Assembly (NCBI GenBank): GCA_963702545.1
Contig: CAVPDB010000006.1
Coordinates: 187,594 to 251,593, forward strand
From: an uncultured Acidobacteriota bacterium
GTDB taxonomy: Bacteria; Acidobacteriota; Polarisedimenticolia; J045
Length of the DNA: 64,000 nucleotides
Direction: 5' to 3'
Shown here: one piece after another, positions 13,600 through 55,275 of the stretch
Numbering within the stretch: position 1 is the first letter of the stretch
How the letters are laid out: each line of letters opens with the position of its first letter
Translations under genes and position numbers: made by a program
Notes under the pieces: generated by a model
Database searches by the model: none
What the model was told of the DNA's origin: nothing
Seen by the model: the letters and a program-made list of their open reading frames with translations, nothing else

Positions 13600-16066
13600 G
13601 CTCCTCAGCCGATTGCTCTGCTCGGCCGGACGGCACCTGGCTGGCCTGCCGCAATCCGGCGCACTGCGGGATAAGTACTTGCACATGGCGCGATGGATCT
13701 GTCCGCGGCACGCCTCGCACGGGCGTCATCCTCGGGTGAGGCCTAGCTTCATCAGGCAACTGTACGCGCCCGGTGGAAGCACCGATCCCTGTAATAGGCT
13801 CCCTCCCACAGCCCTGGGCGGCTAGCGAGTGCTCGGGCACACTTCAGCGGTCTCCGAGGGACTCCAGACGCAGCTATCGACCCAGGGTCCGGCCGTCCCG
13901 GTGCAGCTCGTCGATTCCCGCCTTCGGGCAGCACATGTCCAGGGTGGCCTGCCAGGGGATCGGCGGCGCCAGCTTGATCGTGGCCGTGTCGAGTCCCAGG
14001 TCCTTGCACGTCTCGTAGTCGGACGTCGCGATCGGCGGGGAGACATCGCTCCGTCTCGTCTGGGCGTTGGCATCGGTCTCCAGACGTTCCGGTCGGCGTG
14101 GAACGACGCCTCGCGGTCGTCCCGTGACCGCGACGTACTCGTCGTAGAGGCCGAACAGGTGGCCGAACTCGTGCTCCAGCAGGGCCGCGGCCCAGGGGCC
14201 CGCCAGCGAATAGCCGTCCTCCCCGGGCCGGGCGAGGATCCGATCACCGTCAGGCCGACCCCGCCGAGAGGGCGTCTTCCAGCCCCCCTCCCACGAGGTC
14301 GCTGCAGGTTCGCGACGACGACCACGGCCTTGATGTTGGGCGCGCAGAATTGCAGTTCCAGCACGTCTGGCTCGATCTGTCGGCGTCGAGCCAGATGAGG
14401 TTGCAGTTCCCGGGCTCCTCCTGGCTTCCGGAGTGCCAGCAGCGCCGCGCCACCAGGTCGACCGTCCGGCGTGTGCTCCGAGTCCTCCTTGGGTGGAGCA
14501 GCGGTGTCCCAGCGCGACCGATCCGTCGGTTTCGGCTGCGGCGAGCGGCGGTCTCGGTGGCGAGCGGCGTCTGCTGGTGCATCTGTCGGAGCACGTCGAC
14601 ATCCACATCGTTCTGCTCACGAGGTCCATCCGGTAGACGTTGATCCAACCGCGGTAGGGTGCGAACGACTCGCGCTCGAGGACTTGCGAGGCCAGTTCCT
14701 GAACGACCTCCGGAACGCGGGCAGCTCGCTCTCCTCGAACCCGGCCCCGAGGAAGAGGATGTTGTACGTGTCTCACGGGTCCTGGCCTCCGCCGAGCCTG
14801 GTAGACGGTCGGGCAGAGACGGCTGCTGGGCTGCGCCGGCGGCCAGGACGAGCAGCGCTAGCGGCCAGTCCCGCCCGGGCGCTCATGGAGATCACCGCTC
14901 GGCCGAGCCGCGGCAACTGCCAGGGCCGCAGCTTCTGCTCCAGCGTCGTACGACCAGCGAACCTGCAGTCACCTTGCCGTCACGGGTATCGAACACCGCG
15001 ACGTAGTCGTCCCGACGAAGGGGATCCGCCCGGCGAAGACCACCGCATCGGGCTTCTGCGAGGACGGCGCTCAGCTCCCCGTCCACGGCGCCTCTCCCCG
15101 AGCACCGCGCTCGCGCTCCCAGACGAGCCAGGTAGCGCGGTTGATCGTCTCCCGGTGAAGGTGCCCACGTAGTAGCCGGGCTCCCGCAGCGCGTCCGAGG
15201 GATGCTCGGGCCGATCCGCCGCCGGGTGGCAGGACGCCGTCTGGAACGGGCCGAAGCCTGGCGGATCCGGGTCCGCACTCCTCGGGTCCGACATAGACCA
15301 GCCCGAGGACGGGCACGTCCCCGTCCAGCGGGGCGTAGTCCTCGATGGAGCGCGGTCTCGATCGTCAGCGCCAGCTTGGCGTTGGCGAAGCGTCTCGCCT
15401 CGAGATCTTGGGGCAGTGCTCGTCAGCGGATACCGTCGCCAGGAGCAACAGCGCAAAGCACGAACGGCCGCACATGGTCGCTACGTCCGCCACCAGGACC
15501 CGGAACTTGACTTCCGAGCAGTCGACGTTCGCTCCCGTCCTCATCGTCACGGCCGAAAGCTCGAGGAACTGCTGCCGGGACGCTTCCCGGGACGTCGGGC
15601 TGGAGGGCCGGAGCGCGATCGTGCGGGGCGGGTGTCGCCTGCTTCTCTTCCAGCGTCCACCAGAGCGTCTTCTGTGTCGTCTTCTCGATCACCAGACGGT
15701 AGACCTACCGTTCTCGTCGGTGATGCTGACGCTGTCGACCGGGCTCCAGTTTCCCGTCGTCCTGTTCTTGCATTCCAGGTAGTTCACGGATTGGCCGATG
15801 AAGTCGTCGCGCAGCAGGCCGGCCGTGGGCGGACCCGCCGTCTGTGCGATCCCGTTCACCTCGAAGGAGATGCCCGCCCCTCCGCTGCCGCCCTTGATCA
15901 CGACGATCGGCCCCGGAGCCGGGTTCGGGGGTCCGGATCAGGGCAGGGCGGGCGTTCCGGCGTCGCGGGCGTCGTCGTCGGCACGGGTTGCGTCTTCTCG
16001 CCCGCCAGTCCCGCGCGTGATGGTCACCAACAACAGAATCTGCACGAGCACGACTGCGAGCTTCAT
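13600..16066 (-). pseudogene. Heavily frameshifted gene for a secreted M64-family (IgA peptidase-like) metalloprotease; 3' end approximate
   Basis: ATG 16066 with RBS and signal-like MKLAVVLVQILLLVT. Colinear fragments in changing frames: YNILFLG / GFEESELPAF, ESFAPYRGWINVYRMD, HEFGHLFGLYDEY, GLWEGAYY, YSCLMK, PCEACRGQI. Confidence 0.65.
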
Positions 16067-19000
16067 GGACCCCTCCCCTGGTTTTCGGCAGCGGCCGAAC
16101 CGCCCCCCAGCGCGGCCCGCATCCGCTGCAGATCGACTCGCGCGGCGACGCGCTCCCGACTCTCGGGCGGCGCCCCCGCCTCGTATGCGTCGAGCGCGGC
16201 CAGGCCTCGTTGGCGCCAGACCGCGCGTTCCGACTCGTTCCCTGCCCCCTCGGCCACCAGCACCGCCGCAGCGCGCGCCGTGGCCAGTCGCAGCTCCATC
16301 CGCTCCGCCTCGGTGAACGATTCCCGGGCCGCGGCCGCTGCGGCGGCGTGGTCCCCCAGAGCCGCCAGGACCTCGGCCCGCAGCGCGACGGTGTCGACTC
16401 GATCCGGTCGCGGGGCCCCTTTCAGGGCGAGCGCGGCATCGCAGGCCTGGCGGGCCTCACCCTTGCGCCCCCGCCGCAGCGCGGCCTCCGCTTCCAGCTC
16501 CAGCGCCAGGATGCGCAGCGTGGCCACGCTTCCGCCCGGCATCGACTGCACCCGGCGGGCCGCGCGTCGGGCATCGTCCCACCGGCCGGCGTAGGCGGAC
16601 GCGATTCCGCGCGCCAGCTCGACTCGCGCCTCGAGGTCGGCCAGCCCGCGCGCCTTGCGCGCCGCGCGGTGAGCCGCGTCGATCTCGTCCTGCGCCTCGC
16701 CGTCGCGGCCCAGCGCGGCCAGGAGCTGCGCGCGGCGCAGGCTCGCGTAGGCGACATAGGCGGGCAGCGCGCGCGCCTCGAACACCGCCGCGGCGCGCGT
16801 GGCGCTGTCGAGGGCGTCGGCGAGTCGTCCCTGCCGCTCGAAGATCTCGGCCAGCCCGGCCCAGCCCCACCCGGCGGCCTGCGAGGCCTTCTCCGGCGGC
16901 GCATCGCCCGTCACCTCGCGGTAGAGCTGGATGGCGGCCTCGATCTCTCCCGCCTGATAGCGGAGATCGGCCAGCATCGCCGCACTCGTCACCGCCATGT
17001 CGGGCCGATCCAGCTTGCGCGCCAGGTCGAGCGCCTCCGCCAGCATCGGTTCGGCATCGGCCGTGCGCCCGGTGTACTGGAACAGGCTGCCGAGGTTGAC
17101 GAGCGGATCGAGCATCAGCGGCTCGTCTTGCAGTTGCCGCGCCAGGTCGAGCGACTCGCGCATCAGCCGCTCCGCCTGGCCGAAGTCGCTCTGCAGGTAG
17201 GCCTGCACGCCGCGGCGCAGCAGCACCTCGTTCAGCAAGGCCAGGTGGCCGGTCTCACGCGCCGTCGCCTCGGCCTTCTGCAGCGCGCGGTCGGCCTCGC
17301 GCGGCCGGCCCAGCCGCAGCTCGTTGGCCGCAAACTCCATCTCCGCGCGGGTCGCGCCGACCGTGCGCCCGGCCCGCTCGAACTGATCCGCGGCCGACGC
17401 GAAGGCCGGCCCGGCCGCGCCGAAGTTGGCCGACATCACGGCCACCTGACCCCGCGTGAAGGTCGTCGCGGCCAGCCCCTCGGCGCTGTCGAGCTGCCCG
17501 TAGAGCCGCTCTGCCGCGTCCAGCTCGGCGGCCGCGCGGAGAGGCTGATCGGCGAGGATCAGCGTCTCGGCCCGCGCCAGGTGCAGCGAGGGATCGGCCG
17601 GCTCGCGCTCGATCGCGCGCTGCAGCGTGGCGAGACTCTCCGGGAGCCGTCCGGCGTCGGCCAGCGCTCCGGCGTGCAGGCGCAGCAGGCCCGCTTCGTC
17701 GGGGAAGCGCTCGACCAGCGTGGCCGTCGCGTCGACGGCCACGCTGGTGCGGCCGAAGGTCCGGGCCCAGATCGCCTTCAGCGTCAGCGCCTGCCGCTCG
17801 CCCTCGGGCGTGTCGGCGCGGGGCGCCAGGTCCAGCGCCCGGGTGGCCGCGTCGCGCGCCTTGGCGCCGTAGCCCGCCTCGTCGAAGGCCTCGGCGAGCC
17901 GCCCGTAGGCCATCGCGAAACCGGCATCCGCCTGGACCGCCGCCTCGAGCCGCGCGATCGCCTCGTTGAGCTTGCCGTCGCGCATCGCCGCCTGGCCTCG
18001 CTCGAACAGCAGCCGGGCCTCTTCCGAGTCGGAGGTCAGGCCGGCCAGATCGACCCGGTCGTCGCGCCAGGCGGTCAGGCGGCCGACGCCGGGGAGCATC
18101 GCCCGGAGCTGAGACGAGAGCCGCTCCGCCAGCTCCAGCGCATCGCCCGCTTCGGCGCGCACCGGCGCCAACTCCGCCCGGCCCTGTGCCGGCACGGGCT
18201 CGAGCGTCGCGACGTAGCGGGCTCCGTCGCGATAGAGCGTGCCCGTGACCAGATAGTCGAGGCCGAGGGTCTGGGCGAAGAGCCGCGCCGAGGCGGGGTC
18301 GAGCCGGATGCGCGACTTGCCGAGAGTGTCCGCGAGTTGGGCCGGCCCGCGCACCCGCGCCAGCCGCGAGGCCGAGAGGTCGGTCGAGATCAGGTCTGCG
18401 ACCATCGTCGCCCGCACCGCTCCGTCGGGCTCTCCGGTGCGGTCCTCCAGGGCCGCGACCGCGATCGCGACCCGCGGCTCGTCCCATCGTGGCGGCGAGC
18501 GCAGCCACTGCCAGCCGGCGGCCGCCCCCGCCAGCGTCGGCACGGTGACGATCGCGAGCACCAGGGCGAGGCGACGGCGGCGTAACGCATCCGCGGCGCC
18601 GCGCGCCCGGGTCCACTCGCCGCGCTGGACCCGCCGCAGGTCCTCCGCCAGTTCCTCCGCGCTGGCGTAGCGCTCCTCGGGGCGCTTTCGCAGCCCGCGC
18701 TCCAGGACCGCGCGCAGACCGGGCGTACTGTCGAATGTGCGCGACGCTTCCCGCTCGGCGGGCGGCTCCGAGAGAATCGCGCTGATCGTCTCGGCCTGCG
18801 TCTCGCGGCGGAACGGGTGCACACCTGTCGTCAGCTCGAAACCGACGACGGCGAGCGAGAACAGGTCGCTGGCGGGCCCGAGTTCCTGGGCTCGCAATTG
18901 CTCGGGAGACATGTACGCAATCGTTCCGACGACCGCGCCGTGATGCGTCAGCGATTCGTCCGCAGTGACGGCGGTCGAGTCCGGCACGGGGGAAACGGAG

Positions 19001-19458
19001 GCCGCTCGCGCCAGGCCGAAGTCGAGCAGCTTCACGTGTCCGCTGCTCGTGACGATGACATTCGTGGGCTTGACGTCGCGGTGGACGAGTCCGTGCTCGT
19101 GTACCGCGCGCAGGGCGTCAGCCAGTTCGGCGCACCACGCGAGGCGCTGGTCGATCCCGACGCTCCCGTCTCTTGCGGCGTCGGCCAGCGACCGGCCCTC
19201 GAGGTACTCCATGACGAGGAAGGTCCTGTCGTCCTGCTCGAGCACGTCGAAGACGGTGGCGACGAAGGGACTGACGATCGATGCCGCGATGCGGGCCTCG
19301 CGCACAAACCGGGCGCGGACGTCGGGGCGGGCGAGCAGGTCGGGATGCACCGCCTTGATCGCGACCGGGCGGTCCAGCCGCGTGTCCCGGGCGAGGAATA
19401 CCTCGCCCATGCCCCCTCTACCCAGCAGGCGCTCGACTTGGTACGGGCCGATCTGCAG
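16063..19458 (-). CDS. Membrane Ser/Thr protein kinase with extracytoplasmic TPR repeats
   Basis: LGRGGMGEVF, VAIK, HRDVKPTN, KLLDFGLA, GTIAYMSPEQ, SDLFSL; TM helix LALVLAIVTVPTLAGAAAGW; long Ala/Leu helical repeats. Start inferred from GGAGG just upstream of the kinase domain. Confidence 0.92.
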   Translation of the reverse strand: MQIGPYQVERLLGRGGMGEVFLARDTRLDRPVAIKAVHPDLLARPDVRARFVREARIAASIVSPFVATVFDVLEQDDRTFLVMEYLEGRSLADAARDGSVGIDQRLAWCAELADALRAVHEHGLVHRDVKPTNVIVTSSGHVKLLDFGLARAASVSPVPDSTAVTADESLTHHGAVVGTIAYMSPEQLRAQELGPASDLFSLAVVGFELTTGVHPFRRETQAETISAILSEPPAEREASRTFDSTPGLRAVLERGLRKRPEERYASAEELAEDLRRVQRGEWTRARGAADALRRRRLALVLAIVTVPTLAGAAAGWQWLRSPPRWDEPRVAIAVAALEDRTGEPDGAVRATMVADLISTDLSASRLARVRGPAQLADTLGKSRIRLDPASARLFAQTLGLDYLVTGTLYRDGARYVATLEPVPAQGRAELAPVRAEAGDALELAERLSSQLRAMLPGVGRLTAWRDDRVDLAGLTSDSEEARLLFERGQAAMRDGKLNEAIARLEAAVQADAGFAMAYGRLAEAFDEAGYGAKARDAATRALDLAPRADTPEGERQALTLKAIWARTFGRTSVAVDATATLVERFPDEAGLLRLHAGALADAGRLPESLATLQRAIEREPADPSLHLARAETLILADQPLRAAAELDAAERLYGQLDSAEGLAATTFTRGQVAVMSANFGAAGPAFASAADQFERAGRTVGATRAEMEFAANELRLGRPREADRALQKAEATARETGHLALLNEVLLRRGVQAYLQSDFGQAERLMRESLDLARQLQDEPLMLDPLVNLGSLFQYTGRTADAEPMLAEALDLARKLDRPDMAVTSAAMLADLRYQAGEIEAAIQLYREVTGDAPPEKASQAAGWGWAGLAEIFERQGRLADALDSATRAAAVFEARALPAYVAYASLRRAQLLAALGRDGEAQDEIDAAHRAARKARGLADLEARVELARGIASAYAGRWDDARRAARRVQSMPGGSVATLRILALELEAEAALRRGRKGEARQACDAALALKGAPRPDRVDTVALRAEVLAALGDHAAAAAAARESFTEAERMELRLATARAAAVLVAEGAGNESERAVWRQRGLAALDAYEAGAPPESRERVAARVDLQRMRAALGGGSAAAENQGRGP

Positions 19459-19616
19459 CGTGGGTCCTCCCCCTGGACGCCTCGACTGCTGGCAGCACTG
19501 CTCCGCGGCCCTCCTATACGCCTGCGGCCGGGACGGATCAAGCCTGGCTCGGCAGCCGGCGGACCCGCGATCCGGTCCGGAGGGGTGGGGCCCGAGGGGT
19601 GCTGGATTCTGAACAG

Positions 19617-19645
19617 TGGACGATTTTGGTTTAATACGGTATAAT
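19617..19645 (+). promoter_or_regulatory. Sigma-70-type promoter for the downstream beta-helix protein
   Basis: TGGACG-N17-TATAAT inside a short, strikingly AT-rich island between divergent genes. Confidence 0.6.
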
Positions 19646-19851
19646 TTGAACAATTAATTCTCGGTCGCTCCCCCGCGACTGTCCCTTCTTTCCGCGGGCG
19701 CTCCGCGTACATTCTTGCCGAGCGTCGCCACGGCGCAGGGGGGGCTGGCGGTGTGCCCACGGAGCGGGCGGCCCAGAGGGGGCCGCGCCCGTTCCGCGAT
19801 GATTCGGGCACCGCCCTCCGCCCGACCCGAGCCGCTGACGATGGAGGCGCC

Positions 19852-22800
19852 ATGACCGTGACGCATCGCATGCGGCTGCTCTTCCCCCTGGCCGTCTTCG
19901 CGCTGGCCATCGCCGCCGGGTCCGTCCCGGCCCGGGCCCAGTGCGGCACCCGCTGGATCACCCAGACGGGCAACGACGCCGTCAACAACTGCCTGTCCTC
20001 GGCGGCCCCCTGCCGGACGATCAACCACGGCATCGCGCTCGCCTGCGCCAACGACGCGATCGAGGTCGGCGAAGGGACCTGGACCGAGGACGTGCTGATC
20101 GACCGCGCGGTCTACGTCAACAGCACCGGCAACAACGCCAACACGATCCTGCGCGGGGCCGGCGCCTCCGACATCGTGCGGATCCTGGCCTCCGGCGCGC
20201 AGCTCAACGGGTTCGCGGTCAGCGGCCCCAACCCCGGCCGGGCCTGCGTGCGGATCGGCGATGCGGCGCATCCGGGGGTGCGCACCACCCAGCTCACCAA
20301 CCTGAACGTCTCGGGCTGCACCGTCGGCGTCGTCGTCGACTCGGTCGGGGCTGCCGGCGACTGGATCCGGATCACGGGCAACATCGTCGCCAACCACGCG
20401 GCCGACGGCTCCGCGAACGGCGGTGTCGGGGTGCTCGTCACCGGCGGAGCCGGCCGCGTCGACATCCGCCAGAACAACTTCAGCGGCAACGGCGGCCCGG
20501 CGGTCAAGCTGGCGTCCGGCGCCAACGGGACGCTCCAGCTGGCCGGCAACACCTTCACGAACAACGCGCTCGCGATCCTCGCCTCCGGCCGCGCCGCGGT
20601 CGAGATCCACGGCGCCACCGACCTGCGGATGGAAGGGAACCTGTTCACCGGGCAGACCGGTCTGGGCGCGGTCGACGACGGGCGGGGGGCCTGGATCGAC
20701 GGCGCGAACGGGGTCGAGTTCTTCTGCAACGAAATGCGCGGCAACGACGGCGGGCTCGCGGTGAGCGGCACCGTGACCGGGCTCGCCGCGCTGCAGAACC
20801 GGTTCTTCAACCAGACCGGCCCGGCGATCGAGATCGCGGCCGGGAGCGCGCCCGGCGTGCGGATCAACGAGACGATCGTCTACGCCAACGGACAGGGGCT
20901 CGTGAACGGCGGCACCGCCCGGTCGACGCCCGCCACAACTGGTGGGGCGCGGCCTCGGGACCGGGCGGGCCGGGCGGCGTGGGCGGAACCGGGGACACCG
21001 TCACCGGCCCGGCCGACGTCGGCAACTTCATCGCGCGCACGCTGCAGCCGGTGCTGGCCAAGGCGCCGAAGACCGGCGGCTGGTCGCGCGCCACCGGGGC
21101 CTGCTACGACACGCTGCAGCCCGCGCTCGACGCCGCGCCGACCGGCAGCCTGATCCTGATCGGCGAGGGCGAGATCCGCGGCCAGGCGACGATGACCCGC
21201 GCCGGTCGACCTGGAGGGGATCCCGGGCCAGATCCCCCTGCCCTACTGCGACAACTGCTACCGCGCCGTGATCGACGGCACGCAGTTCAGCGGGCCGCGC
21301 CGGCCGGCGCTGACGCTCTCCGGCGTCAGCGGCGTCACGCTGCGGTACCTGACGATCCACGGCGCCGGGATGGGGACGCCGGCCTGCTTCGGCGGGCACC
21401 AGGACACGGAGGTCGGGCTCGACCTGGTCAACGTGAAGAACTCGCTGTTCCAGTTCCTCGACCTCCGGGAGAACGGCACGACCGAGATCCGCGTGCGCGG
21501 GGACTCGGACGACAACACCTTCGACGGGATCTACCTGGACGGGATGATCCGCGACGGCGACAACGAGGACCGCTGCGGCCACCGCTCGCGCGAGGGGTTC
21601 CTGATCGACGGCGGCCCACGGGCCTGCGAGGGCGGGGCCGGCGCCACGGCGGACCGCAACCGGATCCTCAACTCGAGCACCTACCACATCACCCGTTCGA
21701 TCAAGCTGCGCTGGGCCAACGCCACCGAGATCGCGGCCAGCGTGGTCCACGGCGTGCCGAGCGACGAGTGGCCGGAGCCGGACGCGCAGAACATCTGGAT
21801 CGAGGCCTCCAGCGACACCTGGATCCACGACAACCCCGAGATCGGGAACCGCGGCGTGAGCCGCGCGATCGCGATCCTGGGCAGCCGCTCGTGCGAGGCC
21901 GCCGACAGCGCGCGGACGCGGATCGAGAACTCGACGATCGACATGATCGACAACTCGGGGACCGGGCTGTACCTGGTCCACGCGGCCGGCGACAACGGCG
22001 CGCCGGTCGACACGCGCGTCTCCTGCTCGACGATCCGCGGCGCCTGGAAGGGCGTGGTCGCCGACTGGGTCGGCGGCGCGCAGATCGAGCTGACCGACCT
22101 GGTCTCCGACACCAGCGGGATCGTCAACAACACCGCCGACACGCTGCTGGCGCGTCGCAACTGGTGGGGCTCGCCGAGCGGGCCGTCAGGCGCCGGGCCG
22201 GGGACGGGCACGAGCGTCACGGCGGGGGTCGACTACACCGGCTTCCTGGCCTCCTCGGCCCACGACGACGCGGACGGCGACGGGGTCTCGGAATGCCAGG
22301 GCGACCCCGACGACGGCAACCCGCTGGTCCACCCCGTCGACGGCTGCGACGCCTTCGACAACGACCTCGACGGCACGCTCGACGAGGACTTTCTCCCGGC
22401 GGCGACGCAGTGCGGGACGGGCCTCTGCGCCGCCACCGGCGCGACGGCGTGCGTCGGCGGACTGGTCCAGGACAGCTGCCAGCCGCTGGCGCCGCCCTCC
22501 CCGACCGACGCGACCTGCGACGCGGTCGACGAGGACTGCGACGGCACGGCCGACGACGACTACCCGGCGTCGCCGACGACCTGCGGCGTCGGGGTCTGCG
22601 CGCGGTCGGGCGCGATCTCGTGCGTCGGCGGGGTCGTCCAGGACACCTGTGCCCCGGGCAACCCGATCGCGCCGACCGACGCGACCTGCAACGCGCTGGA
22701 CGACGACTGCGACGGCCTGTCGGACGAGGAGTTCGCCGCGGGCCCGACCAGTTGCGGGCTCGGGGCCTGCGCCTCGACCGGCATCAGCTCCTGCAACGGC

Positions 22801-23601
22801 GGCGTGGCGGGCGATTCCTGCGTGCCGGGGCTGCCCCTCGCGCCGTCCGACACGACCTGCGACGGCGTCGACGACAACTGCGACGGCCTGGTCGACGACG
22901 GTTACCTGCCGCTCGTCACCGCCTGCGGGCTCGGCGTCTGCGAGCGGATCGGCTCGACCTCCTGCGTGGGCGGGGCGGTGCAGGACAGCTGCCTGCCCGG
23001 CCCGCCGGCGGCGCCCGACGACGCCTCGTGCAACGGGCTGGACGACGACTGCAGCGGCCAGGTCGACGAGGACTACGCCGTCCAGCCGACGGTCTGCGGC
23101 GTCGGCGCCTGCGCGGCGCTGGGCTCGATCGCGTGCGCGGCCGGCCGGCCGGTCGAGATCTGCACCCCCGGCGAGCCCAGCCCCGAGGTCTGCAACTACC
23201 TGGACGACGACTGCGACGGGATCGGCGACAACAACATCCCGGTCCCCGACGGGCCGCTGCAGCTGGGCGCCGAGCGCGCGTCTTTCTCCGGCTCGGCGAT
23301 CCTGAGCTGGCCGTCCGTCCCCGCGGCCCTCACCTACGACGTGCTGCGCGGCCGGCTGCCGCTGCTGGTGACCAGCGGCGGAGACTTCAGCACGGCGACC
23401 GACCTGTGCCTGATCGACAACGTCGAGCTGACCTCCTGGTCGGCGCCGGACGTGCCGGAGCCGGGCGACGGGTACTGGTACCTGGTGCGCGCCGCGAACT
23501 GCGCCGGCGTCAGCAGCTACGACGCCGGCGAGTCGGCGCAGACCGGCCTGGCCGGCCCCCGCGACCCGGGAATCGCCGCGTCGCCGCAGGCCTGTCCTTA
23601 G
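19852..23601 (+). CDS. Large secreted protein: parallel beta-helix repeats, Cys/Asp-rich (MopE-like) repeats and a C-terminal CP module (frameshifts near 20920 and 21200)
   Basis: Signal peptide (…VPARAQ), PCRTINHGI...DAIEVGEGTW, Asn/Gly-rich beta-helix repeats, two NWWG..SGP motifs, repeated CD.vD.DCDG..D; ends in ACP. RBS GGAGG. Confidence 0.8.
22340..23240 (+). repeat. Intragenic 171-nt (57-aa) Cys/Asp-rich tandem repeat, about 5 copies
   Basis: The D-A/T-T/S-C-D/N unit starts at 22507, 22678, 22849 and 23020 (period exactly 171 nt); each unit has CG.G.C...G...C.GG...D.C.P. Confidence 0.85.
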
Positions 23602-23603
23602 TC

Positions 23604-23720
23604 CACGGGCGGAGGGGGCGGAGGGCGACCCCTCCGCCCCCTTCGCCCATCCGCCCCCTTCGCCCGTCCGCCCCCTTCGCCCGTCCGCCCCCTTCGCCCG
23701 TCCGCCCCCTTCCACCCGTG
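23604..23720 (+). repeat. GC-rich hairpin whose 3' arm is amplified as a 17-bp tandem repeat
   Basis: GGGCGGAGGGGGCGGAGGG-cgac-CCCTCCGCCCCCTTCGCCC; the unit TCCGCCCCCTTCGCCC(G/A) occurs at 23633, 23650, 23667, 23684 and degenerately at 23701. Confidence 0.85.
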
Positions 23721-23816
23721 GCCCCACACCCCGGGGCCAGGTCGCGACTAACTCAACCTGAATGCTCGGTTTGCGAGGCCTCGCTGTAGCCTATCGGGCG
23801 ATCAGGGGAGGACCTC

Positions 23817-25702
23817 ATGCGCCTTGCGACGGTCGTCGCGTGCCTCGCCGCATCCTGCGCGCCGGATGCGTTTGCTCAGTGCGTCGACACCGACGGCGAC
23901 GGCTACGGGAATCCCGCCTCCGCCGCCTGCCCGTTCGCGTTTCTCGACTGCAACGACGGCTGGGCGTCGACCTACCCCGGGGCCCCCGAGCCGTGCGACG
24001 GCTTCGACAACGACTGCAACGGGCTGATCGACGACGATCCCGTTTGCGACCGCACCTGCGACCCGCCGGAAGCGGTCGGCGGGGACCGGCTTCTCAGCAG
24101 CGGCGGCGGGATCGGCGCCGGGAGCCGGCCGCGGACCGCGTGGAACGGCGGCGGCTTCGCCACCGCCTGGTCCGACGCACGCGGTGGACGCGACGCCATC
24201 TTCGTCGCCTTCGCGGACGAGTCCGGCTCGCGCCTCGGGGGCGAGATCGCGGTGTCGGCCAGCGCGGGCTGGGCCAAGGACCCCGCGATCGCCTGGACCG
24301 GATCGGGCTACGGCGTCGCCTGGGCCGACTCGCGCGACGGCGCGCTCGAGATCTACTTCACGCTGCTCGATCTCACCGGGGCCAAGCTCTTTCCGGAGGT
24401 CGCGCTCACCGCCGGCGAGGAGATCTCGGGCTGGCCCGACCTCGCGTGGAACGGGCGGAACTTCGGGATCGTCTGGACCGGCGAGTCGAGCGGCCTCTCC
24501 TTCGCGGCCGTCGACCGCGCCGGCGGGCGGACGGGCCCGGTGACGAGCGTCGCGACGCATACCGCGTGGCCCAACCGGGCCGCGATCGCCTGGACCGGCG
24601 AGGAGTTCGCGGTGGCCTGGAGCGGAGTCGACGGCGGTCGCGGACAGGTGTTCCTGCAGCGCCTCTCCGCGGCGGGAGACCTGCTCGGGGGGCCCGCCCC
24701 CGTGACCGCAAACCCGACGGCGTCCGAGGCCTCGAACCCCCGGCTGACCTGGTCGGGAGTGGCTTCGCCGTCGCCTGGCACGACCGGCGGCTGGGCAGCC
24801 ACCGCGCCTTCCTCGCGCGGCTCGACCCCTCGGGCGCGAAGCTCGGCGCGGACCAGCCGCTCTCGGACACCGTCTCGCTCAACCCGGACCTGGCGTGGAC
24901 CGGGCAGGAGTTCGGCGTCGCGTGGAGCGAACCGCGGGACGGGATCGCGCGGAAGATCGTCTTCACGACGGTCGACACGGGCGGCGTTCCCGTCGTCCCC
25001 GCCGTCCGCGTCTCCTCAGGCACCCTCCCGTTCGACTACCCCAGCCTGGCCTGGACCGGCGTCCGCTACGGGATCGCGTCGCGCGAGCAGGCCGGGGCGT
25101 GGCGCGTCGTGACGAATCTCGTCGACTGCAACTGCCTCGACGGCGACGGCGACCTCGCGTCCTCGTGCACCGATTGCAACGACGGCGAGGCGACGGTCTA
25201 CCCGGGCGCGGCCGAGGCGTGCAACGGCCGCGACGACGACTGCAACGCGCTGGTGGACGACCTCGCTGGGGTGGTGGACGGAGATCTCGACGGCGTCGCG
25301 GGGGCCTGCGACAACTGCCCCGCGGTGCGCAACGAGCCGCAGTCGGACGGGGACGCCGACGGAGAGGGCGACGCCTGCGACCTCGACGACGCCGTCACGC
25401 TCTTCGAACGGATCGAGCGGCCGCGCGTCGCCTGGCAGAACGACGCGGGCTACCCGTCGTACAACCTCTACCGCGGCTCGCTCGCCGCGCTGTTCGCGAC
25501 CGGCGAGTACACGCAGGAGCCGGGCTCCAACCCCTACGCCGGCCGCTTCTGCGGGCTGGCCGTTCCCTGGCAGGACGACGGCCTCGAGCCCGCGGCCGGC
25601 GAGGCCTTCTACTGGCTGGCGGCCGGGGTCGGCGCGGGAGGCGAGGAGCCGCTGGGGAGCGGATCGGGGGTGACGCGGGCCAATCCCCACCCCTGCCCGT
25701 AG
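23817..25702 (+). CDS. Secreted protein with MopE-like metal-binding motifs, propeller-like AWTG repeats, a thrombospondin-3-like repeat and a C-terminal CP module (frameshift near 24755)
   Basis: Signal peptide, DTDGDGYG...DCND...YPGAPEPCDGFDNDCNG, seven repeats like AWTGSGYGVAW, DLDGVAGACDNCPAVRNEPQSDGDADGEGDACD; ends RANPHPCP. Confidence 0.8.
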
Positions 25703-39563: not shown

Positions 39564-42500
39564 ATGCTCCGGATCGCCCGGCCCGTCCTGCTCCCGCTGC
39601 TGCTCTGCGCCGCCTTCCTTCCCGCGTCCGCCGGCGGCGACGCCGATTCGGCGGATCTCCCGCCCAACCTCCACTGGTGGGTCGTCCAGCAGACCGAGAA
39701 CGGCCAGCGGGCCGACTTCTTCATCGTGCTCAAGCACCAGGCCGACCTGTCGGCGGCCCGTGCTTTGGCCGACAAGAAGGACAAGGGCCGCTTCGTCTTC
39801 TCCGCCCTGACCCAGGCCGCGGACGCGGCGCAGGGCCCGGTGCGCACCTGGCTCGACACGCGCGGGGTGCGGTACCGGCCGTACTGGATCGTCAACGCGA
39901 TCCTGGTCCAGGGTGGCGACCGCGCCCTCGCGATCGAGGCCGCCCGCCGGCCGGAGGTGGACCGCGTCGAAGGGAACCCCGCGATCCGGAACGTCCTGCC
40001 CCGGCCGGGCGCGATCGACGAGCAGGCGGGGCCCGCGCCCTCGGCCGCGCCGGGATCGCCGGCCGCCGGTGGCGAGCCCGACGCCGTCGAGTGGAACATC
40101 AGCAAGGTGCAGGCCCCCGCGGTCTGGAACCTGGGCTTCCGCGGCGAGGGGATCGTCGTCGCCGGCCAGGACACCGGGATCCGCTGGACCCACAACACCC
40201 TGAAGAGCAAGTACCGCGGCTGGAACGGCTCGGCCGCCGATCACAACTACAACTGGCACGACGCGATCCACGAGACCGGCAGCAGCTGCGGCGCCGACTC
40301 CCCGGTCCCCTGCGACGACCACGGCCACGGCACGCACACGATGGGCACGGTCGTCGGCGACGACGGCGGCTCGAACCAGGTCGGGATGGCACCGGGCGCA
40401 AAGTGGATCGGCTGCCGCAACATGAACGCGGGCGCCGGCACCCCCGCGACCTATCTCGAGTGCTTCGAGTTCTTCCTGGCGCCGACGAAGATCGACGGCT
40501 CGGACCCGGACCCGACGAAGGCCCCCGACGTCACCAACAACTCCTGGGGCTGCCCGACCTCGGAAGGCTGCTCGTGGGACACGCTGCAGGCCGCCGTCGA
40601 CAACCAGAAGGCTGCGGGGATCATGACCGTCGTCTCGGCCGGCAACTCCGGCTCGGGCTGCAACACGGTCACCGACCCGCCCGCGCTCTACCTCTCCGCC
40701 TATACCGTCGGCTCCACCACCAGTTCGGATTCGGTGTCGGGTTTCAGCAGCCGCGGCTACGCCACCGGCACCGGTGCGATGAAGCCCGAGATCGTGGCCC
40801 CGGGGTCCGGGGTGCGCTCGGCCTACAATTCGAGCGACTCGGCCTTCACCACGATGGACGGGACGAGCATGGCCGGTCCGCACGTGGCGGGCGCGGTCGC
40901 GCTGCTCTGGTCGGCTCACTCCTGCTTCCTGAACGCGCAGGACGACACGCAGACCGCGCTGAGCGCGGCAGCGCTCGACCTGCCGGGCACGGTGGAGAGT
41001 TGCGGCGGGAACTACACCACCGGTCCGAACAACACCTGGGGCAACGGCCGACTGAACATCCTCTCGGCGGTGAACGCGGGGTGCCTGTGCGCCGTTCCGG
41101 GGGCCCCCGCGATCGACGGGGCCACCGCGCCCGCCGACAGCCGCATGACCGTGAGCTGGGACGCCGGCGTCCCGGCCGGCGATTCGTACCGCATCTACCG
41201 CTCGCTGGGCGCCTGCCCGGGCGGCGCATTCGAGCTGGTCCGCTCCGGCCAGCCCGCCTCGCCCTGGACCGACACCGGCGTCAGCGGCGGGATCACCTAT
41301 TCCTACAAGGTCGCGGCAGTCGACCCGACGGGCGGCTGCGAGTCCGCGCCGTCGGCCTGCGCCGAGGCCACGGCGACGGGCCCGTGCACGCTGGCCCCGT
41401 CGTTCACCGGGCTGGCGTCGGTGACGAACCCGGGCCAGTCGACCTGCGCCCTCTCCCTCGCGTGGCCCGCTGCGACCGCCGCCTGTCCCGGCCCGGTGCG
41501 CTACCGGATTTACCGCTCCACGACCAGCCCCGTGGCGCTCGTGCCGGCCAACGTGATCGCCTCGGGCGTCGATGGGACGAGTTACCTCGACGCCGCGGGC
41601 CTGGCCAGCGGCGGGACCTACTACTACGTCGTGCGGGCCGTCGACCTGTCGAACGGCTCCGAGGATCCGAACTCCGTGGAGCGGGCGGGCGCGCCGTCCG
41701 GGCCGATTTCGACCCAGACCCTGACCGAGACCTTCGAGGGAGTGGGCGGATTCGACCTGCCCGGCTGGAGCGCCGCCGCGCTGAGCGGGGCGGTGAACTG
41801 GGCCTGGTCCGACACCTACGCCGAGTCGCCGACCCACTCATGGCATGCGCGGGACGCCGGCAGCCGCGGGGACAAGGTGCTCACGAGCCCGGCATTCGGG
41901 GTGCAGGCCGGAAGCCGACTCTCCTTCCACCACGGCTTCCGCTTCGAGGGGACGGTGGCGTCGTGCAAGGACGGCGGAACGCTCGAGTACGCGGTCGGCC
42001 CGGCCTTTGCAACCTGGACGGTCGTCCCCGACGCGTGGTTCACCGCTAACGGCTTCAACGGCACGGTGAGCACCTGCTGCAGCAACCCGCTCGCCGGCAA
42101 GCGCGCGTGGTGCGTGTCGAACAGCTCGGCGCAGCCGGTGACGCTCGACCTGGGAGCGCTCGAGGGGAAGACCGTGCGCCTGCGCTGGCACGAGGGCGAG
42201 GACAGCAGCGGGGCCTCGGCCGGGTGGTACGTCGATACCGTCGTCGTGCGCGACGCGGCGGTCGGATCGACCTGCGAGACCGGTCACGCCCCGCCTCCGC
42301 CGGTCGCGGACAGCGTCCGGTTCACGCGCGGCGCGGGGAACCTGCTCAGCGTGACCTACGACGCGGCGAGCTGCAGCGCGCAGAAGGTGGTGGTGCTCTA
42401 CAACGCGCTCGGCACCTGGGACGGCTACCTCGGCTGCGCGCAGGCCGACGGCGGCAACGGCGGCTCGACCGTGGTGGACAGCACGGGCCAGGAGAACGCC

Positions 42501-42635
42501 TGGTACAACCTGCTCTGGACGGCCGAAGAGACGGCGGGTCACCCGGGCTTCTCGTCGAGCGGGCCCCGCGGCTGGACCGTCGGCACGCTCTGCGGGATGA
42601 GCGCAGACGACCACGGCCGGGCGGCATGCCCCTGA
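39564..42635 (+). CDS. Secreted S8 serine protease (bacillopeptidase F-like) with FN3-like domains and a C-terminal CP module
   Basis: Signal peptide, QDTGIRWTH (Asp), HGHGTHTMGT (His), GAKWIGCR, NNSWG, SAGNSG, GTSMAGPHVAG (Ser); YRIYRS...YSYKVAAVD repeats; GWYVDTV beta-sandwich; ends AACP. Confidence 0.93.
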   Translation: MLRIARPVLLPLLLCAAFLPASAGGDADSADLPPNLHWWVVQQTENGQRADFFIVLKHQADLSAARALADKKDKGRFVFSALTQAADAAQGPVRTWLDTRGVRYRPYWIVNAILVQGGDRALAIEAARRPEVDRVEGNPAIRNVLPRPGAIDEQAGPAPSAAPGSPAAGGEPDAVEWNISKVQAPAVWNLGFRGEGIVVAGQDTGIRWTHNTLKSKYRGWNGSAADHNYNWHDAIHETGSSCGADSPVPCDDHGHGTHTMGTVVGDDGGSNQVGMAPGAKWIGCRNMNAGAGTPATYLECFEFFLAPTKIDGSDPDPTKAPDVTNNSWGCPTSEGCSWDTLQAAVDNQKAAGIMTVVSAGNSGSGCNTVTDPPALYLSAYTVGSTTSSDSVSGFSSRGYATGTGAMKPEIVAPGSGVRSAYNSSDSAFTTMDGTSMAGPHVAGAVALLWSAHSCFLNAQDDTQTALSAAALDLPGTVESCGGNYTTGPNNTWGNGRLNILSAVNAGCLCAVPGAPAIDGATAPADSRMTVSWDAGVPAGDSYRIYRSLGACPGGAFELVRSGQPASPWTDTGVSGGITYSYKVAAVDPTGGCESAPSACAEATATGPCTLAPSFTGLASVTNPGQSTCALSLAWPAATAACPGPVRYRIYRSTTSPVALVPANVIASGVDGTSYLDAAGLASGGTYYYVVRAVDLSNGSEDPNSVERAGAPSGPISTQTLTETFEGVGGFDLPGWSAAALSGAVNWAWSDTYAESPTHSWHARDAGSRGDKVLTSPAFGVQAGSRLSFHHGFRFEGTVASCKDGGTLEYAVGPAFATWTVVPDAWFTANGFNGTVSTCCSNPLAGKRAWCVSNSSAQPVTLDLGALEGKTVRLRWHEGEDSSGASAGWYVDTVVVRDAAVGSTCETGHAPPPPVADSVRFTRGAGNLLSVTYDAASCSAQKVVVLYNALGTWDGYLGCAQADGGNGGSTVVDSTGQENAWYNLLWTAEETAGHPGFSSSGPRGWTVGTLCGMSADDHGRAACP

Positions 42636-44510: not shown

Positions 44511-44966
44511 TCAGCGCTGCTGACCCTCCGGCCACTGCACGAAGGCGCCGTTGCTGAGGAAGATGTCGGCCGCGAAGGTCTGCGTCGGGCCGCCCGTGCC
44601 CACGAGCCCGTCGTCGGCACCGCCCTTCGCGTAGGACTGCACGGTGTACTCGGTGCCATCGGCGCAGTCGTACTGCATGACGCCGGCCCAGCCGTCCTTC
44701 GTCGGGGCCTTCTTGATGTAGACCGGCTCGATGCTCAGGCCGGCGGCGCTGCCGTCGACGGGACCGGAGTAGACGGGATAGAAGTTGAAATCGACCGAGT
44801 AGCTCTCCACCGCCGTCCCGATCGAGCGCATGTCCGCCATCGTCCGCTTCTGCTTGCCGCGGTCGATCGCGTTGAGCAGGTTGGGGATCGCGATGGCGGC
44901 GATGATGCCGATGATGGCGACGACGATCAGGAGCTCGATCAGGGTGAAACCGCGGCCGTTCCTCAT
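44511..44966 (-). CDS. Type IV pilin / GspG-like protein with prepilin cleavage-methylation site
   Basis: MRNGRG/FTLIELLIVVAIIGIIAAIAIPNLL; KDGW...Y and SYAKGG GspG-like segments; RBS GGAGG. Confidence 0.9.
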   Translation of the reverse strand: MRNGRGFTLIELLIVVAIIGIIAAIAIPNLLNAIDRGKQKRTMADMRSIGTAVESYSVDFNFYPVYSGPVDGSAAGLSIEPVYIKKAPTKDGWAGVMQYDCADGTEYTVQSYAKGGADDGLVGTGGPTQTFAADIFLSNGAFVQWPEGQQR

Positions 44967-54128: not shown

Positions 54129-55079
54129 TCAGGGGCAGTCCCGCGCCGCGATCGCGCCGCCGTCGCTCGCGAAGCCCGCCGGGCCGGCGGCACCCGCGCC
54201 GCGCACCCGCGCCAGGTACGCGAAGAGCTCCCCGCGCGTCTGGTCGCGCGTGATCTCCTGCACGGCCTCGGGCGAGTGGATCCGCACACCGTCCACCTCG
54301 CCGCCGTTCATGATCATGCGCCAGAGCGTACGGTAGTCGGACAAGCGGCTGATGACCCCGCCGTCGATCCGTGGGTTCGTCGTGCTGTTGTAGAACATCC
54401 CGATGCCGAGCGGGTCGCGCACCCTCTCGGCGAAGATGCGGCGCCAGACGGCGCCCGAGCCGAGCCCGACGCAGTTCGCCGGGAACCGGTTGCAGTACGC
54501 GATCTCGGCCATCCGGCCCGCGACGTGCATCGAGTTGCTGCCGTAGAAGAACGTCGCCCCGGGCGCGGAGACGCGCGGCGCGCGGTCGAGGATGTCGGTC
54601 GTGCAGTCCGCCAGCGTCGCGCCGGGGTCGGCGACGCAAGGCCACTCATCGTTCCAGAGTCCGGAGGTCTGGCTGAACGCCTGCCGCAGCGTGATCGAGC
54701 CGTTCGGCGTCCCCGCGTACTGCGGCAGGTAGTCGGCGACCATGTCGTCGAGCGACATCGTTCCGTCGTCGACGAGGCTCATGATGACGCTCGCCGACAC
54801 GACCTTGCTCGCGGACGCGATCGGCACGAAAGTGCCCGGCCCGTAAGTCCCGAAGAATCGCTCGTGATACGACGTGCCCGCGCCGTCGAAGACCGCAATC
54901 GCCGCACCCGGCAGACCGCGGTCCACTCGGTGGAGGTCGACGACGGCGTCGGCCTGGACGAAGCTCGGGGTGCACCCCAGAGAGGGCGGCGCCGCGAGCG
55001 CCAGCGCCGCGGCGCAGGCGAGGCCCGCTGCGGCGAACCGGATCGGAAGCGGCCCCGACCTACTGCTGCTGACGAACAT
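54129..55079 (-). CDS. Secreted serine hydrolase (class C beta-lactamase-like), apparently internally deleted, with C-terminal CP tail
   Basis: Signal peptide, IASASKVV (SxxK), ITLRQAFSQTSG, PGATFFYGSN (Tyr motif); the domain stops after DQTRG and the protein ends GELFAYLARV...ARDCP. Confidence 0.8.
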   Translation of the reverse strand: MFVSSSRSGPLPIRFAAAGLACAAALALAAPPSLGCTPSFVQADAVVDLHRVDRGLPGAAIAVFDGAGTSYHERFFGTYGPGTFVPIASASKVVSASVIMSLVDDGTMSLDDMVADYLPQYAGTPNGSITLRQAFSQTSGLWNDEWPCVADPGATLADCTTDILDRAPRVSAPGATFFYGSNSMHVAGRMAEIAYCNRFPANCVGLGSGAVWRRIFAERVRDPLGIGMFYNSTTNPRIDGGVISRLSDYRTLWRMIMNGGEVDGVRIHSPEAVQEITRDQTRGELFAYLARVRGAGAAGPAGFASDGGAIAARDCP

Positions 55080-55275
55080 CTCGCCCTCCACGGGGAAGGT
55101 CGTGCTCGGCGGGTCGTCCTGCCCCTCGGGACGCGGCGCGCGGCGCCCCTTCAGTCAGGACGGGCGTTCCGCGGCTGGGTTGACGCGTCGGGCGGGGCAG
55201 GCCGGCGTCATGTCGCCGTCACTCGACCGCAGGGCCTCTGCGCCTGGCCCGGGCCGCTCGACGACGCCGAGGTGG

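Follow-up and report, generated by a model that had tools for sequence, protein, structure and literature searches.

A cysteine-ended, FN3-like C-terminal domain of exported Acidobacteriota proteins: one lineage-restricted family and a possible cargo-independent tag

Why should four proteins with unrelated N-terminal parts, encoded within one stretch of Acidobacteriota DNA, all stop at the same two residues, Cys-Pro? The stretch, called the window from here on, is 64,000 nucleotides long and corresponds to G000:C6:187594-251593, G000 being an Acidobacteriota metagenome-assembled genome of 3.95 Mb in 24 contigs, with 73% G+C and an estimated completeness of 81.5%. Acidobacteriota are abundant, mostly uncultured polymer degraders, and the delivery of their large secretomes is poorly known. 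We analyzed the C-terminal domain that these four proteins share. Judged by profile comparison, the four tails are one homologous family, with an FN3-like core and a family-specific tail bearing the terminal cysteine. The domain closes otherwise unrelated proteins throughout one Acidobacteriota class, and it may act as an export or retention tag.

An earlier note, made from the letters of the window alone, had named four open reading frames (ORFs) ending in C-P-stop, at 23601, 25702 and 42635 on the + strand and at 54129 on the - strand, and all four end exactly there. Among window ORFs no shorter than 100 aa, five have a CP end: these four and one that fails the coding filter. Tails were compared in three alignments: A1, with 39 tails of 105 aa chosen for their CP ends; A2, with 28 A- or B-type tails including those of both adjacent genes; and A3, with 11 C-type (4-Cys) tails, that of the S8 peptidase first. 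HMM stands for hidden Markov model. The four proteins and their tails are as follows.

19852..23601, + strand: gene 1, with a signal peptide, a right-handed beta-helix, MopE-type Cys/Asp repeats and the C-terminal domain (ORFs in three frames; Pfam Beta_helix, NosD and Cu-binding_MopE)
23284..23598, + strand: C-terminal domain of gene 1, A-type, 3 Cys, ending ...SPQACP (first row of A1; 82.9 bits against the iterated HMM; E 3.4e-24 in the genome profile search)
23817..25702, + strand: gene 2, with a signal peptide, a MopE motif, a propeller-like repeat region, an acidic Ca-type linker and the C-terminal domain (ORF list; Pfam)
25385..25699, + strand: C-terminal domain of gene 2, B-type, 2 Cys, ending ...NPHPCP (row L022 of A1; 54.2 bits against the iterated HMM)
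39564..42635, + strand: S8 serine peptidase carrying two FN3-like domains internally, a MAM/M36-like region and the C-terminal domain (Pfam Peptidase_S8 match over residues 194-470; partial NCBIfam matches; internal FN3-like matches)
42318..42632, + strand: C-terminal domain of the S8 peptidase, C-type, 4 Cys, ending ...GRAACP (E 1.2e-22 against the C-type HMM, whose seed contains this sequence; first row of A3)
54129..55091, - strand: beta-lactamase-fold serine hydrolase, 320 aa, internally deleted (Pfam Beta-lactamase covers only profile positions 8-177 of 329)
54132..54227, - strand: remnant of the hydrolase tail, its last 32 residues, ELFAYLARVRG...AARDCP (a fragment match of only 11-16 bits; the ending is as in the full domain of the orthologue)

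Three of these genes are damaged in the window. Compared with locus L040, whose DNA is 93.8% identical, the frame of gene 1 is broken by single-base indels at window positions 20919 and 21200, and that of gene 2 by a 1-nt deletion at 24754. The L040 orthologues are intact: that of gene 1 (L040 4426-8334) runs from its signal peptide MTVTRRMRVLFPLAVLALALAAGSVPARAQ through to ...SPQACP, and that of gene 2 (L040 8431-10377) from its signal peptide MRLATIVACLAACCGLEASAQ through to ...NAHPCP. The earlier reconstruction of both adjacent genes as signal-peptide proteins was therefore right. Since the frames downstream of the indels are still open and coding-like, an assembly error is as likely as real pseudogenes. 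A search with the whole gene 1 protein found six orthologue loci, the remaining matches being mostly Myxococcota MopE-repeat proteins. The spacer between the two genes contains 4.9 copies of the 17-bp unit CCCGTCCGCCCCCTTCG (window 23629-23712), and L040 is 59 nt shorter there.

The hydrolase has lost an internal segment. Its orthologue in a genome of the same genus, G001 (L160 1501-3144, 547 aa), is 95% identical over residues 1-294, and in it the beta-lactamase fold is complete and is accompanied by an acidic Asp/Gly linker and an entire tail domain that ends ...LFAYLARARGPGAVGPAGFASDGSAIAARDCP. By the blastn break points, 681 nt are gone in frame from the window copy; the deletion takes the final part of the beta-lactamase fold together with the acidic linker and two thirds of the tail domain, and the last 32 residues are kept. 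The gene upstream of the orthologue in G001 (L160 3-1148, + strand) ends in ...SPQRCP.

Are these ends a family or a coincidence of two residues? Among 2143 crudely called G000 genes, 35 end in Cys-Pro, against 1.7 expected from composition and 8.1 expected from the marginal frequencies of C at position -2 and P at position -1. When the tails were read by eye and with the HMM, 33 of the 35 were judged to be family members or remnants, and the other two look like wrong-frame ORFs. The genome-wide count of Cys-Pro ends, which the earlier note had put forward as a check, thus came out in favor of a family. We then asked how the tails relate to one another, using 34,224 six-frame ORFs of G000 (Z=34224 for genome-scale E values). 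With phmmer, the last 125 residues of gene 1 matched 17 other ORFs, and the gene 2 tail matched nine others at E<0.01, several of them common to the gene 1 list; C16_127933 is a paralogue of the gene 2 tail (E 1.5e-50). The S8 and hydrolase tails found nothing beyond themselves among these ORFs at E<0.01. An HMM iterated from the gene 1 tail reached 82 domains in 70 ORFs. The 4-Cys subtype represented by the S8 tail occurs in 13 ORFs, and its HMM cross-matches the first group and converges on the same set. Direct comparison of A2 with A3 by hhalign gave a probability of 95.9% (E 5.3e-9, 75 columns). The tail domain of the hydrolase orthologue scores 24.6 bits against the A1 HMM (E 5.6e-5 at Z=34224). 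On the strength of the HMM convergence, the hhalign comparison and this last score, the four tails are one homologous family and, as had been proposed, one module, of which the hydrolase of the window keeps only a 32-residue remnant. About 81 ORFs of G000 carry the domain, and in 69 it lies no more than 25 aa from the stop.

The domain comprises about 95-105 residues: after an FN3-like core comes a Gly-rich tail, some 20 residues long, whose end has the form Cys-Xaa-stop, mostly Cys-Pro. In A1, the core is marked by a near-invariant Trp, a Y-D/N-V-x-R-G strand and an invariant internal Cys at position 42; these are followed by P-x-x-G, a F/Y-Y-L-V-R strand, a Gly-rich G-x-G-S/T-x-G segment and the terminal Cys-Pro. 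Compared with PDB sequences, the A1 profile matched 3mpc_A, annotated as an 'Fn3-like protein' (E 1e-6), and the FN3 domain of 5g56_A (E 2.4e-5), both over profile positions 5-83 only. The top matches among representative proteins are giant proteins with many FN3 repeats, and most of these matches end between profile positions 74 and 95, ahead of the tail. Because the FN3 matches end before the tail, the module can be divided into an FN3-like core and some 20 residues of tail that are specific to the family, and from the FN3 match the domain is presumably a beta-sandwich. In the Protein Atlas, one whole homologue yielded leads for its N-terminal part only. It carries no transmembrane helix and no basic tail, a point of the earlier note that is directly apparent in the sequences. 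Some terminal FN3-like variants of G000 without the Cys tail stop right after the F-G loop. Five ORFs end in C-G-x-E-G-P, with a single Cys and a terminal Pro (C4_59948, C4_61801, C4_71599, C6_172614 and C21_25078), and three end in G-H-Y-G-R/Q (C8_31652, C11_96920 and C16_56558).

Existing family models leave the domain unannotated. The Pfam fn3 model (PF00041) matched one of the 39 A1 tails (E 7.8e-4) and none at its gathering score, and gave no match at E<=1e-5 on the tails of the 40 own carriers scanned in full, that is, the 40 shortest of 56 G000 ORFs of 300-1500 aa with a terminal domain and a near-terminal Cys. Among NCBIfam models, one touched one of the 39 tails (E 0.035). In the window proteins, the last ~100 residues belong to no Pfam or NCBIfam family. 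The domain is therefore unmodelled by Pfam and NCBIfam, in agreement with the suspicion that the module was unnamed, and superfamily resources such as Gene3D and SUPERFAMILY may well label it FN3-like. A literature search, with most subscription journals outside its scope, found no description of a Cys-ended domain of this kind.

The covariation of the cysteines was followed over 445 aligned domains from G000 and public proteins. Terminal domains have both the internal and the terminal Cys in 167 cases, only one of them in 7 and neither in 4; in the internal FN3 repeats of giant proteins, the internal Cys is absent in 232 of 255. In the 4-Cys subtype, one additional Cys lies shortly after the Trp and another in the tail, giving the consensus C-L-P-Q-x-[IV]-x-x-C-P, and this second pair also moves together (both present in 102 domains, neither in 64, mismatched in 6). 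Such covariation is easier to reconcile with a structural disulfide than with a free thiol used for anchoring. The pairing inferred from it would fasten the tail to the sandwich by one or two disulfides, and a structural role for the terminal Cys is more likely than an anchoring one. The earlier suggestion of attachment through this Cys is accordingly not supported. A third Cys, present in 18 of the 39 A1 tails, lies in an N-C-G loop (the F-G loop) after the Y-L-V-R strand.

The last Cys is trailed by exactly one residue in 91 of 110 public members (83%) and in 49 of 69 own members (71%); that residue is Pro in 68 of the 110 public members. Tails from other Acidobacteriota often end in C, CN, CS or CQ, which indicates that the penultimate Cys is the constant element and Pro a preference of the lineage.

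The domain is a terminal one. In public homologues it lies within 12 aa of the protein end in 110 of 119. The earlier note had reckoned that common occurrence as an ordinary internal FN3 domain would speak against a sorting module. The answer is divided: the FN3 core does recur internally in giant proteins, whereas the Cys-tailed form is terminal in those 110 of 119 public proteins and in 69 of 81 own ones.

The cargo in front of the domain is diverse. Among the 40 own carriers scanned are three S8 peptidases, GH43 and GH39 glycoside hydrolases, matrixin-like (M10), trypsin-like and PETase-like enzymes, and proteins with Kelch, FG-GAP, BNR/sortilin, LamG, cohesin, beta-helix or cytochrome c7-like domains; 16 of the 40 matched no Pfam family. 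The range is widened by public carriers, which bring in C25, M23, M4 and reprolysin-like peptidases, GDSL enzymes and others. One C25 paralogue in G000 itself carries the domain at its end. A crude heuristic assigned a signal-peptide-like N-terminus to 42 of 69 own carriers and to 58 of 84 public carriers that start with Met, and several of the negative own carriers are frame-broken ORFs.

Of 67 carriers, 24 have acidic calcium-type motifs, either TSP3-like (D-x-D-x-D-G) or MopE-like (C-x-D-x-x-C-D), in the 100 aa that precede the domain; in 59 control windows taken further upstream, the count was 12 TSP3-like and two MopE-like matches, so that the enrichment before the domain is only mild. 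Two gene families recur near carrier genes. One, with eight members within 6 kb of carriers, includes the window gene 16066-19653 (- strand), whose translation, read by eye without a domain scan, looks like a Ser/Thr kinase with TPR repeats, and seven G000 paralogues; the second has 16 members. The recurrent neighbors of carriers are large paralogous families and yielded no specific partner, their recurrence being probably a by-product of family size.

How far does the domain extend? In the genus, family and class of the window, 41 of 41 genomes matched at E<=1e-5, with 5 to at least 121 matches each. In an evenly drawn sample of 201 Acidobacteriota genomes, 17 of them labelled as the same family or class and 184 as others, 33 were positive at E<=1e-12: all 17 of the former and 16 of the 184 others. 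G034 is counted among the 17, and the conclusions are the same without it. Five of the 16 other positives have 10 to 53 matches each at E<=1e-10, and in 30 loci drawn from those five genomes, 29 of 35 domain matches lie within 12 aa of the stop. In families f32 and f69, which form a separate class, 24 of 26 genomes are positive, with 1 to 16 copies. None of five genomes from other phyla (two Myxococcota, one Planctomycetota, one Poribacteria and one Neomarinimicrobiota) matched at E<=1e-8. The source names of public homologues include Acidobacteriota, Candidatus Polarisedimenticolia and Polarisedimenticolaceae, with one protein labelled Planctomycetota. A protein labelled Polarisedimenticolaceae shares 61.5% identity, along its full length, with one from G000, a lead that makes Polarisedimenticolia the probable class. 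A profile search of 1.84 billion representative proteins was dominated by giant multi-FN3 proteins and is therefore no measure of the size of the Cys-tailed family. The family is thus lineage-restricted, occurring throughout one Acidobacteriota class and with lower or variable copy number in some other Acidobacteriota. With its unrelated cargo and class-wide distribution, it answers the description first given of it, a cargo-independent, lineage-restricted last domain of signal-peptide proteins.

Taken together, we hold the chances to be evenly balanced that the domain is a cargo-independent export or retention tag, a function deduced from patterns in the proteins themselves. This reading accounts best for the strict terminal position, the fixed end, the copy number and the diversity of cargo. 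Under it, the domain would fold in the periplasm after Sec export, and the invariant internal Cys would bond with the penultimate Cys, joined by a second pair in the 4-Cys subtype. With the tail fastened to the sandwich by these disulfides, the C-terminus on display would be fixed and resistant to carboxypeptidases. A shared factor would then read the folded tag and either move the cargo across the outer membrane or hold it at the surface.

What could such a factor be? A type II-like route for folded proteins is available, because G000 encodes two secretins and several pseudopilin-like genes, one of them in the window. That gene, a GspG-like pseudopilin at 44613-44954 (- strand), scores below the family cut-off and lies 2 kb downstream of the S8 peptidase. 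The other system to consider is type IX secretion (T9SS), in which, according to PMC5445135, a beta-sandwich C-terminal domain (CTD) directs the cargo and is removed by the C25-type sortase PorU, which is anchored by PorV and attaches the cargo to anionic lipopolysaccharide. G000 encodes a PorU-like candidate, a 1519-aa protein (G000:C12:248403-252959) with a C25 domain and an FN3 domain. It aligns with the NCBIfam PorU model NF033707 over 734 residues (E 2.8e-39), at 134.6 bits against a cut-off of 420, and the best PDB match of its C25 domain is PorU (6za2_A, 4.2e-7), with gingipain R at 2.7e-6. Above the 420-bit cut-off, NF033707 matched none of the 201 phylum genomes.

Orthologues of this protein at E<=1e-60 occur in 28 of the 201 genomes. 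Of these, 27 belong to the domain-positive set of 33, and in the remaining one a single domain match stands at 2.5e-10; six of the 33 have no such orthologue. C25 matches as such are widespread, being found in 91 of 201 genomes, including 59 of 168 domain-negative ones, and partial NF033707 matches occur in 84 of 201. The domain gave no match in four genomes where other C25 proteins are plentiful. No PorV-like gene was found beside the PorU-like gene. Because detection of the PorU-like protein and of the domain both weaken with distance from the class of the query, their co-distribution may reflect shared ancestry only. The PorU-like C25 protein is the sole candidate partner of the domain, and the evidence for it is suggestive, its co-distribution being confounded by phylogeny.

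A radical SAM/SPASM gene lies directly upstream of the PorU-like gene in seven of eight loci (G000:C12:246682-252959 and L199-L205), and in four of the eight an extracytoplasmic function (ECF) sigma factor gene follows it. We set the radical SAM/SPASM protein aside as a specific partner: homologues occur in 61 of 201 genomes, and they often stand beside C25 genes in domain-negative genomes as well. A literature search of the same scope as above found no paper combining the radical SAM and C25 pair.

Several observations weigh against a dedicated tag. No partner or machinery for the domain emerged from the searches. Models for SprA/Sov and PorV (TIGR04189, PF14349, NF033710 and PF19572; two models each) matched nothing in the 81.5%-complete G000, the SprA result being weak since these models matched in no control genome either. 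The exosortase model PF09721 had no match in G000; across the 17 class genomes it gave weak partial matches in five and no strong full-length match. (Exosortase as a complementary system proved uninformative: it is present in 64 of 201 genomes, and most other Acidobacteriota sampled also lack it.) The signal-peptide heuristic is positive for about 32% of ORFs without the tail domain, so that this test is weak. The three cysteines of 18 of the 39 A1 tails are an odd number, which makes the disulfide scheme incomplete. Furthermore, FN3 domains are common as spacers or binding modules of secreted enzymes, and a terminal, stabilized FN3 could spread by domain shuffling without a dedicated pathway. 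The domain might therefore be an ordinary FN3 end-cap, spacer or sticky module binding surfaces or polysaccharides, spread by shuffling and served by no sorting machinery, in which the disulfide and the Pro only guard against proteolysis. The profile does match clostridial glycoside hydrolases in their FN3-like domains, and giant multi-FN3 proteins in their repeats; most of its conserved positions (W, Y-x-V-x-R, Y-L-V) are those of a generic FN3 core; the same genome has the terminal variants without a Cys tail described above; and no translocon or sortase is firmly identified. However, one copy per protein, always last, with a penultimate Cys in most members, is unlike the behavior of spacer FN3 domains, and known sorting domains show the pattern seen here, in which tens to >100 carriers per genome have unrelated cargo and are restricted to a lineage. 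We consider this account possible but rather unlikely.

The PorU-like protein leads to a more specific alternative, namely that the domain is recognized and cleaved off by this C25 peptidase, which couples the cargo to a surface glycolipid, as in T9SS-like attachment without SprA or PorV. The alignment with NF033707, the match to 6za2_A and the near-coincidence of orthologues with domain-positive genomes speak for it, as do the C25-rich genomes that lack the domain and the C25 paralogue that ends in it. Yet the score of the protein is far under the curated cut-off, C25 and partial NF033707 matches are widespread in the phylum, those of C25 also in domain-negative genomes, shared ancestry could explain the co-distribution, the domain is unlike T9SS CTD models in sequence, and SprA and PorV, the latter the anchor of PorU in the T9SS (PMC5445135), were not found; we regard this alternative as quite unlikely. 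Could the terminal Cys instead be a free thiol for covalent anchoring, by lipidation or through a thioester or thioether link? The penultimate Cys is near-invariant, the odd count in the 3-Cys tails leaves one Cys unpaired, and a radical SAM/SPASM gene adjoins the PorU-like gene. But the terminal Cys covaries with the internal one as expected of a disulfide, the extra Cys of the 3-Cys forms sits in the F-G loop and not at the end, the radical SAM-C25 pair is also common in domain-negative genomes, and the tails have no lipobox, CaaX-like or known sortase motif. Free-thiol anchoring is thus very improbable.

The export or retention tag remains our preferred reading, and it can be extended to a whole pathway. 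We hypothesize that Acidobacteriota may possess an undescribed envelope pathway in which a disulfide-locked tag is read by its fixed C-terminus and processed by a PorU-like C25 'sortase' without SprA or PorV, so that each cell would bring 50 to >100 hydrolases and adhesin-like proteins to its surface; in this extended form, the hypothesis is an unlikely one. If the sorting signal is real, it would be a third structural solution beside T9SS CTDs and exosortase-type signals, and possibly a portable surface-display tag in these organisms. In any case, the domain marks 50 to >100 secreted proteins per genome, so a profile could flag the exported hydrolases and peptidases of this class in metagenomes, and it provides a handle for finding the tag reader, any cleavage and any involvement of the PorU-like protein. 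Even if it is only a stabilized FN3 cap, the domain deserves a family model, since current libraries leave these last ~100 residues unannotated.

Cargo-independent C-terminal signals are known from many secreted proteins of environmental Gram-negative bacteria, among them PEP-CTERM, MYXO-CTERM and GlyGly-CTERM. In these, a short motif precedes a transmembrane helix and a basic tail, and the processing enzyme is exosortase, myxosortase or rhombosortase. In contrast, the Cys-ended domain is a globular unit of about 100 residues with no hydrophobic stretch at its ...C-P end. Secreted S8 peptidases and metallopeptidases can end in the pre-peptidase C-terminal (PPC) domain, a small beta-sandwich. 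The Pfam PPC model did not match the tails, and the carriers of the Cys-ended domain are not peptidases alone.

The T9SS CTDs of Bacteroidota (type A, Por_Secre_tail; type B, CHU_C) have several features in common with it. They are likewise folded domains of about 70-100 residues at the extreme C-terminus, and tens of proteins per genome carry them, among them many unrelated hydrolases, peptidases and adhesins exported by Sec. G000 also encodes the PorU-like candidate, whose score is below the PorU cut-off. Unlike them, the Cys-ended domain has an FN3-type core, conserved Cys pairs and a Cys-Xaa end, it belongs to another phylum, and the genome gave no match to PorV or, less tellingly, to SprA. 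The Pfam and NCBIfam models of T9SS CTDs matched none of the 39 tails at E<=1 and none of the window proteins at E<=0.1. A survey (PMC4793230) detected the T9SS in 60 of 97 Bacteroidetes genomes, and no other clade had it.

Relatives by sequence are the FN3-like domains found in secreted bacterial glycoside hydrolases (3mpc_A and the FN3 of 5g56_A), which have the W, Y-x-V-x-R and Y-Y-x-V signature in common with the core of the Cys-ended domain. Those domains are internal linkers without the internal Cys, and they run on into a normal G strand. The Cys-ended domain instead continues after its core into a Gly-rich Cys tail and stops one residue past its last Cys.

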